This document shows, piece by piece, positions 27,001-45,000 of a stretch of 64,000 nt of DNA. Each line of letters opens with the position of its first letter. Within the stretch, counting starts at the first letter, position 1. The position numbers are program-made. Source of the stretch: Escherichia coli (GTDB lineage Bacteria; Pseudomonadota; Gammaproteobacteria; Enterobacterales; Enterobacteriaceae); the NCBI RefSeq assembly GCF_050320075.1, contig NZ_CP190018.1, one strand, 5' to 3'.

Positions 27001-30000
27001 CTCGGGTCAGCTACCGAAAACAGTGGGCGCGCTGGCGGGTGATGATTCTGCCGGTATTGCTGATTCTGGTTGCGCTGGCAGTGGAACGGGGCGTGACGTT
27101 ATGGAGCATCAGCGAACAGGTGGCGCAAAGCCGCACCCAGGCGGAAAAAAAGTTCTTAACACTGTTCCCGGAGCAGAAGCGGATTGTGAATTTGCGTTCC
27201 CAGGTGACGATGGCGCTGAAAAAATATCGCCCGCAGGCCGACGATACCCGGCTGCTCGCAGAATTGTCAGCGATCGCCAGTACCCTGAAAACGGCGTCAC
27301 TTTCCGACATCGAAATGCGTGGTTTCACCTTTGATCAAAAACGCCAGACTCTTCACCTCCAGCTGCGGGCCGCGAACTTTGCCAGCTTCGACAAACTGCG
27401 TAGCGCACTGGCAACCGATTATGTTGTGCAACAGGACGCATTACAGAAAGAGGGTGATGCGGTTTCCGGCGGCGTAACGTTGCGGAGGAAATAACATGTT
27501 ACGCGATAAATTTATTCACTATTTTCAGCAATGGCGTGAACGCCAGTTAAGCCGTGGCGAACACTGGCTGGCACAACACCTGGTGGGGCGTTCGCCGCGT
27601 GAAAAGGGCATGTTACTGGCAGCGGTGGTGTTCCTGTTTAGCGCCGGATATTACGTCCTCATCTGGCAGCCTTTGAGCGAACGGATAGAACAACAGGAGA
27701 CGATGTTGCAGCAGCTGGTGGCGATGAACACCCGACTGAAGAACGCCGCGCCGGATATTATTGCAGCGCGAAAATCTGCCACAACAACGCCTGCGCAGGT
27801 ATCGCGGGTCATCAGTGACAGTGCTTCCGCGCACTCGGTGGTCATCAAGCGGATAGCCGAGCGTGGGGAGAATATTCAAGTCTGGATAGATCCGGTGGTG
27901 TTTAATGACCTGCTGAACTGGTTAAAAGCACTGGATGAAAAATATGCGCTGCGGGTGACACAAATTGATGTCAGTGCTGCTGAGAAGACTGGGATGGTGA
28001 ATGTGCAGCGGCTGGAGTTTGGGCGGGGGTAGGTATTAAAAACTATAAACATTAGTGATATTAAACGTATTATCAAGATTCATTAGCTATTACTTTAACC
28101 TTGATATGTTCCTTATTATATTAAAGTCAGAGTAAGTTGCATATATAAATGAATTATGAACCTACTGAGTAAATTTTTATAGATGTGATTAATAAAGGAA
28201 TATCGATAACCGATTAATATTACAACAATTTGATGAGGCTTACATGTCAAAAAGAATCAACAAATAATTATATCAGAAAAAGTTATATTATCTTATTGAA
28301 GGCCTCTTTAAAGAGGCCTTGCGTGGGCGAAGCGTTCTATGTAACAGTACATGCAACTGGGGTAACTTTTCTTTAAAGGGTATTTTTTCGAACGTGTATT
28401 AGGAAAAGTATTTACATAGAGTGATATTCAGGTTGTAATAAGTTACCTTTGTTACAGTTACGTGGTGTGTGTTTTGTGGTGGATTGTTGGCCTCCTGATT
28501 ATCGTTGTTGTGTTTGTTATCTTAGTGGTCAGGTCTCGTATGCAGGATATGGATGATGATTATTGATAAAAATGTTATCATAAAATTTATAGAGGTATTA
28601 TATTGAATAAGTAAAATATAATGTTGTATTGAACTTTTTACTATTTTTATTGTAAAAAGACCCGCTTTAATTTTATGCATTTTTGAGAGTCTGACCAAAT
28701 AATGGTGTTTTCAATATTCCTCTAGCGTCATATTGTTCAGTGATTTATGCGGGTGTTCACAGTTGTATTCTAGCAACCATTTTCCCTTGATTCCCCACAC
28801 TTCATTCAGTATTCTGGGCAGATGAAAATTGAGTGTTTCTGTACGGGATGTCCGGTTAAAACACTCAATGAAAGCGTACTGCGTCAGCTTACTTGGTTGG
28901 ATAAACATGCAGTAAAACTGGAGTTTATCCAGTTACAAAAAAAATAATGCGCATTATTAATAACACGCATTAAATATAGATTAATTCTTTAATTCTTTAA
29001 TTCTTTAATTCTTTAATTCTTTAATTCTTTAATTAATTCGCTATAACTTTTATAAATAATATCTAAAACCCTAATTAAATCATTTTTATACCTCAGGTTA
29101 TCAGGTTTTATAGAATATGCCTTTTTTAAGTATAGCTCAGAGGTTTTGTAGTCCTTAACTTTTTCAAAAATTAACCCTATATGATGGTATGCTGGAGCAT
29201 AATTTGGATCTTCGTTGATACAGCACTTATAATTATTGATGGCTTCATCAAATTTATTCACATGATTCAATGCTATTCCAAGTTCAAAATATGTATCGCG
29301 GTTTTTCGCTATTTTTACAGATCTTGTTAAAAACGGTAAGGCTGCTGCTGGTTTTTTTTGTCGAGTTAAAGCCATGCCATAATATAAATTATATAGTGGG
29401 TTTGTTATATTATTGTGTTTTACAGAATCAAGAACTTCAATGGCTTGGTCGTACTTTCTGTTTCTGATTAGTACATAGGCATTATAAATTTCATGTATGT
29501 TGTACTTTGAAAAATAATCTTTTCCTGAATATTCGCAATGAAATATCTTTGTTGCTTCGTTATCATTCTTTATCACAGTTTCAATAAATTTATCAATTTT
29601 AATAAAGTTCTCATGAATACTTTTTGTTACATTATGACCAGTGTTTTTTATTATTATGATGTGGATATTTTCTAATGTATATGGCAGTAACGATGCATTA
29701 TATAGATCGATTATGTCAAGCTCACCTGAAAATATATAAAACGTTGTGTCGGTGGCATTAGAAAACAAATTTGTTAAATCATGATATTTAACTTTAATGT
29801 CTTCGGGCATATGTAATTTACTTCGGCTAAAAGGGAGTTGTAAAACATATTCTGCCCCGAAACAAATTACATGTTTTGCTTTATTTTTAATTCCATATAA
29901 CGCTGCTCCCGTTCCTCCCATTGAACTACCAATATATATTGTATTTTTTTTCTTAGTAATGGATTTTATTGCGTCAACGCTATCTTCTAATGAAGAACCC

Positions 30001-42000: not shown

Positions 42001-45000
42001 TACTCTTTCAGATACAACGCATCTTCTGCGGAACTGGGGTTAGAGGCACCCAGAAGCAGACCAAAATTCAGGCTGCCGCTGTTTAAATCATCCGAGCGTT
42101 TAATGGCGACTTTCGACTCGCTCATATAGCGAGGCTGGCTGAAGATAGCCAGATAGATCAGCAGCACCGCCATCGGTGCCAGAATGATGATTTTCGCCAG
42201 GTGTTTTTGGATATCTGCCAGTGAGATGGCAGACAGACGAGCACGCATCCAGGATACGGCAGACTTCACTTTTATCAACATGTAACGATTATCAAAGTTT
42301 CAGTGGGGCGCAAACTCAATGAGAGACTAACCTCTCGCACCCCGTTGCTTAATTAGTCGAAAATGCGCACAAGGCCAGTGACTTTATTTGCCTTGTTGGT
42401 CACCAATAACGTTGAGACGCGGTGCTTTTGCATTTTTTCTTCCGCTTCAATGATCATGGTGTCTTCCGGTAGCGTCAGCGGTTCACGTGTCATCATCTGC
42501 GCAGCCGTGGCGGATGTCAGAGAATCCTCTTTTTCCATAAAGCGACGCAGGTCACCGTCGGTGATAATGCCCACTAGCCCACCTTCTGCGTCTTCTACCA
42601 TCACCATTCCCTGGCATCCGCTGGTGATACGTTGAATCACGGTTTTAAATGACGCATCCAGCTGTACCGCAGGAACATCATGCTGCATGACATCAGCAAC
42701 GCGGGTCAGCAGGCGACGACCTAATGAACCGCCCGGGTGATAGCGCGCAAAATCATTCGGCATAAATTTGCGTTGGTGGATCATGGCAATCGCCAGCGCA
42801 TCGCCGATCGCCATCGTCAGCGTGGTAGACGTTGTTGGTGCAAGATTATTCGGGCAGGTTTCATTCGCCATGTGGAGTTCCAGCACGGCATCAGCATTTT
42901 TCGCCAGCGTGGAATTTCCATTATTGGTAATGGCGATAATTCGGTTGCCGAAATTTTTCAGTGAAGGAACTAGCTTGAGGATTTCATCCGTTTCACCGCT
43001 GGCAGAAATAAGGATCAGAAGATCGTAAGGCGTAATCATGCCCAGATCGCCATGGAAAGCTTCTGCAGGATGAATAAAGAAACTAGGCGTACCCGTAGAG
43101 GCCAGCGTCGCTGACATTTTACGACCGACATGCCCTGATTTACCCATTCCCGAAAGAATAACGTGACCTTTACAGTTCATTATCAAATTAAGGACACGCT
43201 GGTACTGCCCGGAATCCAGTTGTTTAGACAAGTTTTGTAATGCTGCGCCTTGTTCTGCCAGAGTCTGGCGAACAGAGGTAATTAGATATGGATCGATAGT
43301 ACTGCTCTGGTCATCAGGTAAATGTCTTTCAGACATATCAGCTCCTTTGCACGGAAATAATGCCACAGTCACAACAAACCCGAACCCACTATAATTTATT
43401 TATGCTAAATCAATGGGTTGTAACAAAATTTTTAATGAATATAAAACCATGGTCAGTCCATGCTTATATGCAGGACTTATCACCTTCTTATTAAGTCGCA
43501 ATGTCTCATGGAGGTGCGAAGATGCTGCAATATTACAGGCGAGAAGGGGAACCAAATTTTGCCCACCTATTTAACACACCCCTACATTATGAACAAGGAA
43601 TTTAGGATTTTTATCATTTATTAAAATGTTTCCTACTTGACTATTAAGACCAAAAACAATTTATCAATTGATTATTTCCTTGTAAAAAAAGAACGTATGA
43701 CTATGTTATTAATAAATAAAACACGCAAATAATGGTGATGTTGTTTTGTGATTAACTATTTAAGTGCGGCATAATAAACAGGTTGACAATTTCTATGTAA
43801 AGAAGAGGAAAATAATAAAATTTTAGCGGTGACTATTGAATGATATGATAGTTGTGGTGTTGATTATTTCTGGTAATGAATGCGGAATTAAATCTGGCCG
43901 GATTGTATTTTTTCTATATCTATTTTTCAGGAGATTATTATTAAATAGAAAAATAACAATGGTGATTATCTCCGGTTGAGCTGGAGTCACGTATGCCAGC
44001 GAGTGCTTTCTTCCGGGCCTTCCTTCACTTCAGAGAAAGAGCCTATGGAAAAGAGGCAATCATCAGGCTCTTTTTGAGTCATATGCGCCGATAATCAACT
44101 GTCTTGAACGTAAAAATTATGGAGCAACATGATGCTACGATTCATTTCACTCTTCGTTCTTTCTGAGCATTGCGTTCAGGATGGTCAGCAATTTACGCAT
44201 ACAGTCAACCAGCGCCACTTTTTTGGTTTTTCCGGCTGCTGGCAGATGCATGTAAAACGCCTCTTTCACCGGATTAAACCAGGTTACCACAAGCGCTGCC
44301 ATGTGCAGGGCTGCTCTTGCCTCCGTACGCGCACTGGCGTCGTTCGGCCAGCAGATATGTGTGGGATAACAGGGATGTTATGTGAACTGAACTGTGTTTT
44401 GTTAGCGGGGGATGTTTATTGATGATTCGGGAGTGTTTAAGACCTGATGGCGTTATGCTCCCAAGTTTATTTTATATAAAGATCCAAAAGCAAAAACCCG
44501 CCTTGTGGGCGGGTTCTTAAGAATTAGTGGTGCCCGGACTCGGAATCGAACCAAGGACACGGGGATTTTCAATCCCCGTGTCATAAAATTCAGATAGTTA
44601 CGGGCATGTCAAGTTGTTGTTGAAGTCTTTCATGCGCATCCGATCACATAACTGTCGATAGGACGCAGATATGAAAATACTTCCCGTTGTCTCAACAAAA
44701 GGTGGCGAAGGTAAATCAACACAATCCGCTAACCTGGCTGGTTTTCTCGCCGATGCAGGTATCCGTACCCTGCTGATTGACGGAGATCATGCTCAGCCCA
44801 CGGCAAGCAACATCTTTCCGCTGACATATGAAGCGTCAGCCGGTCTTTTTGAGTTGCTGATGCGCACGGCTGACCTCAGTCATCCCGATAACATCATTTC
44901 CCGCACGGCTATCGACGGACTCGATCTGATAGTCTCCAATGACCCTCATGAGCAGTTAAAAACTGCGATGCTTCACGCCCCGGATGGTCGTCTGCGCCTC

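Follow-up and report, generated by a model that had tools for sequence, protein, structure and literature searches.

A K111 group 2A capsule locus of Escherichia coli with kpsMT and serotype genes co-directional with region 1

The 64,000-nucleotide (nt) stretch of Escherichia coli DNA analysed here (contig NZ_CP190018.1 of assembly GCF_050320075.1; hereafter the window) carries a group 2 capsule (kps) locus in which the region 1 genes kpsFEDUCS, the transporter genes kpsMT and the serotype genes follow one another on a single strand. By sequence comparison, this is the K111 group 2A locus of the kTYPr catalogue at the usual pheV-gsp site, and only a minority of E. coli group 2 loci share its co-directional gene order. 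Both the K111 type and the rearranged layout are already in the literature. Considering the evidence jointly, we regard it as probable that this catalogued K111 locus with its minority layout was inherited as a whole cassette, that the layout goes back to an old inversion, that kpsMT and the serotype genes would be reached by RfaH-assisted read-through from region 1, and that the locus would direct a polymer containing Kdo (3-deoxy-D-manno-octulosonate).

Results

Gene order and identity of the capsule locus

Open reading frame (ORF) calling combined with an NCBIfam scan placed the following on the minus strand, in the order of transcription: kpsFEDUCS, a spacer of 409 nt, kpsMT, two serotype genes, a hairpin terminator and a fragment of an IS3-family insertion sequence (IS). 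The genes, called from the ORF list and NCBIfam matches unless stated otherwise, are:

35392..43336, minus strand: region 1 (kpsF, kpsE, kpsD, kpsU, kpsC, kpsS), from NCBIfam matches
43336-42353, minus strand: kpsF (RefSeq start at 43336; the ORF extends to 43372)
42281-41133, minus strand: kpsE
41112/41109-39433, minus strand: kpsD
39423-38683, minus strand: kpsU
38686-36659, minus strand: kpsC, intact, 675 aa
36624-35392, minus strand: kpsS
34982-34203, minus strand: kpsM
34206-33529, minus strand: kpsT
33453-30184, minus strand: serotype gene for a 1089-aa glycosyltransferase (ORF list)
30179-29013, minus strand: serotype gene for a 388-aa TPR protein
27496-28032, plus strand: gspM (yghD), which closes the gsp type II secretion operon and anchors the locus on the right (RefSeq annotation)

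All six region 1 genes that characterize group 2 (2A) loci, including kpsF and kpsU, were present, and the locus occupies the pheV-gsp site of such loci between a 'pheV remnant (44526-44577) and yghD/gspM (27496-28032), with the rest of the gsp operon, sslE and glc further left of gspM in the window. Region 1 has a GC content of ∼0.52, which drops to 0.29-0.34 in the interval from 35.9 to 28.0 kb. The classical order of region 1, region 2 and region 3 with a convergent kpsMT was not found in the window. Instead, the order was the all-co-directional kpsFEDUCS-kpsMT-serotype gene order that an earlier note, made from the sequence alone, had proposed, and the measured spacer of 409 nt agreed with its placement of kpsM about 410 bp downstream of kpsS on the same strand. 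According to the kTYPr paper, a co-directional order is a variation within group 2A, where kpsMT and the K-specific genes are frequently rearranged (PMC13171606). Group 3 loci, in contrast, have the order kpsDMTE, region 2, kpsCS and lack kpsF and kpsU (PMC13171606 and established knowledge); with kpsF, kpsU and the order FEDUCS-MT, the window locus is therefore not of group 3.

In the kTYPr supplement, K111 is a group 2A cluster with the K-specific proteins K111_9 (1089 aa; GT1/GT4 and GT29-like) and K111_10 (388 aa), the latter recorded with TPR and an N-terminal alpha/beta-hydrolase fold (PMC13171606). The reference is GCF_003146455, NZ_NBKV01000062.1, positions 14..14338, with a length of 14,325 bp (Miravet-Verde et al., Nat Microbiol 2026, PMC13171606). 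The translation of 30179-29013 has the md5 checksum listed for K111_10. The 1089-aa glycosyltransferase shares its length and domain set with K111_9 while the md5 is different, and at least one residue must therefore differ. Because the md5 of the 388-aa protein and the length and domains of the 1089-aa protein match, we assigned the window locus to K111. Furthermore, the cluster length of ∼14.3 kb is as in the window, and the numbering of the K-specific genes as 9 and 10 is as expected if kpsFEDUCSMT make up genes 1-8. This comparison was made through protein md5, lengths and domains, from which we infer the nucleotide identity and gene orientation of the reference.

Cassette boundaries and comparison with the K1 and K2 loci

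The elements at the two ends of the rearranged block are:

35392..35453, minus strand: type-specific tail at the 3′ end of kpsS, where the variable cassette has its left boundary (end of K1/K2 homology)
35047..35391, minus strand: AT-rich spacer of 345 nt with 31% GC, from the kpsS stop codon to JUMPstart (no terminator-like site, no similarity to the region 3 promoter PR3)
35010..35046, minus strand: JUMPstart with ops core (Rfam RF01707 full-length, 32.8 bits against a gathering score of 35, E 2e-5)
35021-35014, minus strand: ops core GGCGGTAG, 39 nt upstream of the kpsM ATG
28981..29034, no strand assigned: octanucleotide repeat (TTAATTCT) x 6.8 across the stop codon of the last capsule gene (Tandem Repeats Finder, TRF)
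28945..28972, minus strand: terminator-like hairpin with T-run, likely end of the kps transcription unit (terminator scan; also found as a palindrome)
28924..28942, plus strand: relic of the canonical Escherichia kpsM leader (K1 -96 to -78) on the gsp strand, which is the canonical orientation (18/19 bases match K1 and K2)
28650..28906, minus strand: IS3-family transposase fragment, integrase core (BLAST, 75-84% identity to IS3-family transposases)
28038..28567, no strand assigned: yghD-proximal flank of ∼530 bp, common to three co-directional junction classes

The K1 locus of the avian pathogenic E. coli (APEC) strain E12053 (L005) and the K2 locus of strain CFT073 (L004) occupy the same chromosomal site as the window locus. 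Window positions 44500-35454 were 97.5% identical in nucleotide sequence to region 1 of both. This homology ended at 35454/35451, ∼60 nt before the kpsS stop codon and past a conserved ...TQVNxVYYG motif, and the KpsS C-termini were different in each locus type compared. As judged from these alignments, the point of divergence in the 3′ end of kpsS is the usual region 1/region 2 boundary. Homology to K1 was regained at 28037, 5 nt past the yghD stop codon, with yghD and its flank being 96% identical to K1. The cassette is thus bounded by 35454 and 28037, and its boundaries in K1 and K2, at the 3′ end of kpsS and 5 nt past the yghD stop codon, are equal to these.

Within the cassette, K1 and K2 share with the window a JUMPstart/ops element ∼40 nt before kpsM, near the Rfam threshold in the window, and the transcription of kpsMT and then the serotype genes in one direction. 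However, in K1 and K2 regions 3 and 2 are convergent with region 1, as the earlier note had described for reference loci, whereas the block in the window is oppositely oriented. K1 and K2 also possess a yghD-kpsM intergenic region of 1.06-1.17 kb with PR3 and a long leader, while the window keeps a relic of 16-19 nt and JUMPstart. Compared with this K1/K2 intergenic region, no counterpart of PR3 was found in the window except for the last ∼59 nt (JUMPstart) and the 19-nt relic. Beyond JUMPstart, the spacer showed no homology to PR3 or the leader (local alignment z ∼0 in both orientations), and the yghD-side flank gave only a marginal z of 3.2-3.8 in the canonical orientation.

The relic contains an exact 16-mer, TTTATCCAGTTACAAA, at 28924-28939 on the gsp strand, which corresponds to positions -93 to -78 of the canonical leader and occurs once in the 64-kb window when both strands are considered. 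E. coli and Escherichia sp. E1V33 have the same 16-mer at -93 of their canonical leaders, and E. whittamii has it there with a single mismatch. It is located between the IS3 fragment, which is 18 nt away, and the region 2 terminator. The earlier note had marked an IS3-family remnant at 28711-28908, and this remnant is real: RefSeq annotates an 'integrase core domain' coding sequence, WP_071932134.1, at 28908-28711, and the BLAST similarity spans 28650-28906.

The kpsMT alleles are divergent. KpsM of the window scored 175 bits against the NCBIfam KpsM model, under the equivalog cut-off of 300 bits, and window positions 35038-33622 (JUMPstart and kpsMT) aligned with canonical kpsMT in the opposite orientation at ∼71% nucleotide identity, a value found for the K1, K2 and K15 alleles alike. 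At the amino-acid level, the identity to K1 and K2 amounted to 75% for KpsM and 70-75% for KpsT. Outside the class of loci with this junction, the best KpsM matches were a 79% identical protein of Kluyvera intermedia, encoded on a 2.3-kb contig, and a 78% identical protein from a convergent locus of Phytobacter; no donor species for the cassette was identified among species-representative Enterobacterales genomes.

The co-directional layout is a minority architecture

Our survey covered 5,426 complete E. coli genomes, ∼1,860 of which had a group-2-type kpsS. The entire 9-kb stretch from kpsC/kpsS to gspM, with 99.5-100% identity, was contained in 22 of them, each assembled independently. These K111 carriers originate from humans, dogs and chickens and include strain ST648 and human blood and urine isolates. 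The kpsMT lineage of the window was detected at ≥80% identity in only 38 genomes, all the other 1,786 matching at ∼71%. The window-type spacer occurred in 36 genomes, in every case between kpsS and kpsM, and was 82-100% conserved across its class. Two further classes of kpsS-kpsM junction, whose spacers are unrelated to this one and to each other, were found in 32 (KL112-like, represented by L007) and 31 genomes (CE2050 type, L008). At least 99 of the surveyed genomes, or ∼1.8%, thus have the co-directional layout.

The K111 junction and kpsMT lineage are common to at least two other K types with different serotype genes. Two sibling loci, L002 and L003, have the same kpsS tail, spacer and kpsMT, followed in L002 by genes for an acyltransferase, a GT29 and a GT2 enzyme, and in L003 by genes for a 1165-aa HAD-type protein and a hypothetical protein. 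Among loci with this kpsMT lineage, the IS3 fragment is specific to K111 and is absent from both siblings. An IS3 insertion shared with the CE2050-type loci was considered but is not supported, as the fragment is only 78% identical to the equivalent IS3 pseudogene, which lies at another distance from yghD. The yghD-proximal flank of ∼530 bp was found in 52 of the 5,426 genomes and in all three junction classes wherever the yghD side survives, being ∼83% identical to K111 in L002, L003, L055 (KL112-type kpsM) and L056 (CE2050 type); it had no match in the canonical K1/K2 yghD-kpsM intergenic region.

KL112 of sequence type (ST) 131 clade C was described with the same co-directional layout, confirmed by long reads (Potterill et al., bioRxiv 10.64898/2025.12.15.689991). 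According to the same preprint, kpsMT of KL112 is expressed in RNA-seq and other atypical Kaptive K loci share the layout (bioRxiv 10.64898/2025.12.15.689991). L007, from E. coli EC32, was assigned to KL112 by the preprint's description only (IS1, a CatB-like acetyltransferase and gsp deleted next to glcB). KL112 resembles the window locus in its kpsFEDUCS-kpsMT-serotype order, the loss of PR3, divergent kpsMT alleles and a type-specific kpsS tail. It differs in its kpsMT lineage (67% and 69% amino-acid identity for KpsM and KpsT, respectively), in an unrelated spacer, in its serotype genes and, in ST131, in the deletion of gsp by IS1, whereas gsp is intact in the window. The preprint reports that ops was lost together with PR3 (bioRxiv 10.64898/2025.12.15.689991). 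In the KL112-like L007 (9480-9855), GGCGGTAGCATA is still present 35 nt before the kpsM ATG, in the same variant as in K2/CFT073. No Rfam JUMPstart match was obtained in L007, while the window retains a near-threshold full JUMPstart.

Two further loci were observed in the course of the survey. L009, on a 187-kb IncHI-type conjugative plasmid (NZ_CP137739.1) of the pig strain HNSQ2209, carries a complete co-directional L002-type kps locus with the window-type spacer, accompanied by the chromosomal block nupG-speC-yqgA-pheV and an integrase and bounded by IS5 and IS1; in this copy, the pheV capsule region has been mobilised in its entirety. In E. coli ST2747 (L055, NZ_CP007394.1, 11538-13100), a degenerate co-directional locus consists of kpsFEDUCS, in which kpsD is frameshifted, then a KL112-type kpsM and only 99 nt of kpsT; its serotype genes are all missing, and the remnant lies ∼0.3 kb from the ∼530-bp yghD flank.

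The locus is not that of K15

The K15 determinant of the uropathogenic E. coli (UPEC) strain 536 was reportedly described by Schneider et al. in 2004, and the earlier note had considered that the window might hold the same or a related locus. K15 (UPEC 536 / F8316-41) does resemble the window in its pheV-gsp site beside a 'pheV remnant, its low-GC regions 2 and 3 and its unusual history. However, it is convergent, with region 2 between regions 1 and 3, and it has a truncated kpsC' and, within region 2, a second kpsC-kpsS pair of group 3 origin (PMC7387560), whereas the window has an intact kpsC, a single kpsC and kpsS, and a co-directional kpsMT. Moreover, kpsMT of UPEC 536 is only 71% identical to that of the window, strain 536 is not among the 22 carrier genomes, and the K15 strain MRY15-131 matched part of kpsM only, at 74%. 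The convergent K15 order, the second kpsCS pair and the 71% kpsMT identity rule out that the window locus is the K15 locus of strain 536. The comparisons with K1 and K2 agreed with the note's view of convergent reference loci, while the one with K15 spoke against the proposed relation.

Transcription of kpsMT and the serotype genes

As the earlier note had stated, no terminator is visible after kpsS, and our terminator scan found no such site in the kpsS-kpsM spacer. The ops core was kept 35-39 nt before kpsM in all five co-directional loci examined (5/5). In the window, the Rfam JUMPstart was missed at the gathering threshold and matched only in E-value mode. From this arrangement, read-through from the region 1 promoter would transcribe kpsMT and the serotype genes, and RfaH would load at the retained ops and take RNA polymerase across the serotype genes of 30% GC to the hairpin at 28972-28945. 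A putative promoter in the AT-rich 345-nt spacer may add to this transcription. We consider region 1 read-through with RfaH loading at ops likely, and we count the absence of PR3 and the analogous KL112 arrangement with its kpsMT expression by RNA-seq in its favour (bioRxiv 10.64898/2025.12.15.689991).

Alternatively, kpsMT and region 2 could be under a new promoter of their own within the spacer, with negligible read-through from region 1, which would preserve the two-promoter logic of the canonical loci. The spacer is AT-rich, as are many H-NS/SlyA-controlled promoters, its conservation of 82-100% within the class would suit such a role, it contains -35/-10-like hexamers, and kpsMT of KL112 is expressed below region 1, like in canonical loci. 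However, these hexamers are no commoner than in shuffled sequence, the CE2050-type spacer totals only 155 nt, and kpsS and kpsM have no terminator between them. We rate this possibility seriously, but at somewhat less than an even chance.

Origin of the layout

A scan of species-representative Enterobacterales genomes yielded 45 kpsM loci, and kpsS was captured too in 32 of these. Since all 32 loci of other Enterobacterales species (32/32) showed the convergent arrangement, the co-directional layout is the derived one. In the window, JUMPstart, which equals positions -59 to -1 of the leader, and the 16-nt leader relic lie at opposite ends of the block. A relic on the gsp side with JUMPstart at the other end is what a breakpoint between leader positions -78 and -59 would be expected to produce. 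With moderate support, the layout would have been created by an old inversion of the block of regions 3 and 2; a breakpoint in the kpsM leader just upstream of JUMPstart would cut kpsMT from PR3 and leave the relic of 16-19 nt on the gsp side. One or a few such old inversions would have given rise to a co-directional scaffold, which would circulate and diversify by cassette exchange. Through ordinary homologous recombination within region 1 and gsp, the window strain itself would have inherited or acquired the cassette as a whole, from the 3′ tail of kpsS to the yghD flank; it probably did not invert its own locus. With respect to topology, the earlier note was right that an inversion of kpsMT plus region 2 would yield this layout, and the 32 convergent loci support the derived state that this implies. 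Its two endpoints, near the IS3 remnant and in the kpsS-kpsM spacer, also fit the leader relic (28924-28939) beside IS3 and JUMPstart beside kpsM.

Several observations weigh against this account or against the read-through proposed above. Neither inverted repeats nor paired IS copies were found at the two endpoints, only short AT-rich chance matches. The leader relic is a mere 16-19 nt long and lies in a K111-specific segment, outside the flank common to the class. In the 5,426 genomes, no homologue of the 345-nt spacer was found outside kpsS-kpsM junctions, which makes a base-by-base reconstruction of the inversion impossible, and no convergent locus with the window kpsMT lineage was found, this lineage being seen only in co-directional loci. 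In the KpsM neighbour-joining tree the three co-directional lineages stand apart, with a bootstrap of only 44-65%, which suggests several events, while the ∼530-bp flank that they share speaks for a single origin, and the two signals disagree. Regarding transcription, the 32.8 bits of the window JUMPstart compare with an Rfam gathering score of 35 and with 58.5 bits for the K1 element. Lastly, the promoter-like spacer hexamers stand at chance frequency, which leaves both read-through and a spacer promoter putative.

The tree raises the question of whether each kpsMT lineage (the K111 family, the KL112 type and the CE2050 type) was inverted separately. Indeed, the kpsS tails and spacers of the three lineages are unrelated, pairwise identities of their KpsM proteins reach only 66-69%, and the lineages are scattered in the tree beside convergent loci, namely those of Phytobacter/Kluyvera, E. 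coli K1/K2 and Kluyvera/Citrobacter. This is countered by the ∼530-bp yghD flank, which is common to all three and missing from canonical K1/K2, by the weak bootstrap of the tree, and by the known exchange of kpsMT alleles among loci (PMC13171606). We view several independent origins as possible, though on the less probable side. The opposite and more sweeping proposal appears somewhat less probable still, and we advance it tentatively: all co-directional loci would form one sub-architecture, marked by the shared flank, the loss of PR3 and the retention of ops, which would descend from a single inversion within Escherichia with later swaps of cassettes comprising the kpsS tail, spacer, kpsMT and region 2, and which would be transcribed as a single unit of ∼14 kb from the region 1 promoter alone, with mid-operon loading of RfaH.

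Far less credible is a recent, IS3-mediated single inversion of kpsMT plus region 2 in a K1/K5-like locus, private to this strain. Although the topology fits and the IS3 fragment and the leader relic are 18 nt apart at the gsp-side endpoint, identical junctions are present in the 22 complete genomes of human, dog and chicken origin, kpsMT shares only 71% identity with canonical alleles, PR3 is absent on both sides despite being expected either to be carried along or to be left behind, the kpsS side has no second IS3 copy or inverted repeat, and the siblings L002 and L003 have the same junction without the IS3 fragment. As a recent or private event in a K1/K5-like locus, the single inversion of the earlier note is thus contradicted by the ∼71% kpsMT identity, by a spacer and flank without canonical counterpart, by the disappearance of PR3 and by the lack of a convergent parent. 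An assembly artefact at a junction, which the note had named as a possible objection, can practically be dismissed, as both junctions recur in 22 independent complete assemblies and as the kpsS-kpsM junction and the yghD flank are also found in sibling loci (36 and 52 genomes, respectively).

Serotype genes and predicted product

The 1089-aa multidomain glycosyltransferase (30184..33453, minus strand) is K111-specific. In Pfam, residues 153-283 matched GT4, residues 477-636 weakly matched a KpsC/S-like Capsule_synth domain, and residues 913-966 matched a GT29-like CMP-sugar transferase motif. The 388-aa protein, likewise K111-specific, has C-terminal TPR repeats in the NCBIfam scan. By analogy, the latter appears to resemble the alpha/beta-hydrolase capsule O-acetyltransferases discussed for K15 (PMC7387560). 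Since region 2 contains no genes for nucleotide-sugar pathways, the polymer would be made from housekeeping UDP-sugars and CMP-Kdo. The CMP-Kdo would be supplied by kpsF and kpsU, and a Kdo-containing repeat unit is therefore reasonable. Judging from gene content, the K111 polymer probably contains Kdo and would be built by the predicted three-domain polymerase.

Repeat variation and a conserved hairpin on the yghD side

Between the last capsule gene's stop codon and IS3, strain Z0117EC0056 (L057) had 8 nt less than the window, and strain ampC_0069 (L058) had 16 nt more. These differences fit one unit of the octanucleotide repeat fewer in the former and two more in the latter. Because the protein accession is identical in both strains, the variation falls into the 3′ untranslated part before the terminator hairpin. 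In addition, a perfect GC-rich hairpin (AAGGCCTCTTTAAAGAGGCCTT) is located at 28299-28321 in the yghD-proximal flank and is kept in each of the co-directional classes, where it may act as a bidirectional terminator between the convergent gsp and kps transcription units.

The pheV side and other features of the window

Two features flank the locus on the kpsF side:

44526..44577, minus strand: tRNA-Phe 3′ remnant ('pheV) that extends from anticodon arm to CCA (the sequence contains ggggattgaaaatcccc...ggttcgattccgagtccgggcacca)
44147..44329, minus strand: IS110-family transposase fragment upstream of kpsF (RefSeq annotation of the identical record L006, coordinates converted)

In every group 2 locus examined, K1, K2 and the siblings included, the IS110-family fragment lies upstream of kpsF. 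ARAGORN detected no intact tRNA in the window, while RefSeq lists a 78-nt 'tRNA-Ser' at the 'pheV spot in the YZLc1-3 record. The 'pheV remnant marks the boundary to an SPI-7-type integrative conjugative element, which starts at ∼44671 and continues through 64000. Its genes encode ParA, DnaB-PI, ParB, an STY4528-family replication protein and topoisomerase III, and the YZLc1-3 record, whose 100% identity to the window extends only up to ∼61.2 kb, has ParA, DnaB-PI and ParB annotated. Two Rfam matches were observed elsewhere in the window, STAXI RNA within the integrative element (139 bits, 59365-59518, plus strand) and the small RNA C0719 between glcB and glcA (298 bits, 9092-9313, minus strand).

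Discussion

Beyond what the catalogue and the preprint offer, our analysis provides the exact cassette boundaries, the retention of ops in every co-directional class examined, the shared flank, the leader relic and a prevalence of ∼1.8%. The type of capsule and its regulation shape the virulence of extraintestinal E. coli, their susceptibility to phages and their targeting by vaccines, and the K111 locus type occurs in clinically relevant lineages. The loss of a separate region 3 promoter could alter the co-regulation of capsule export and synthesis, and its possible effects include thermoregulation via the region 1 promoter alone and mid-operon loading of RfaH.

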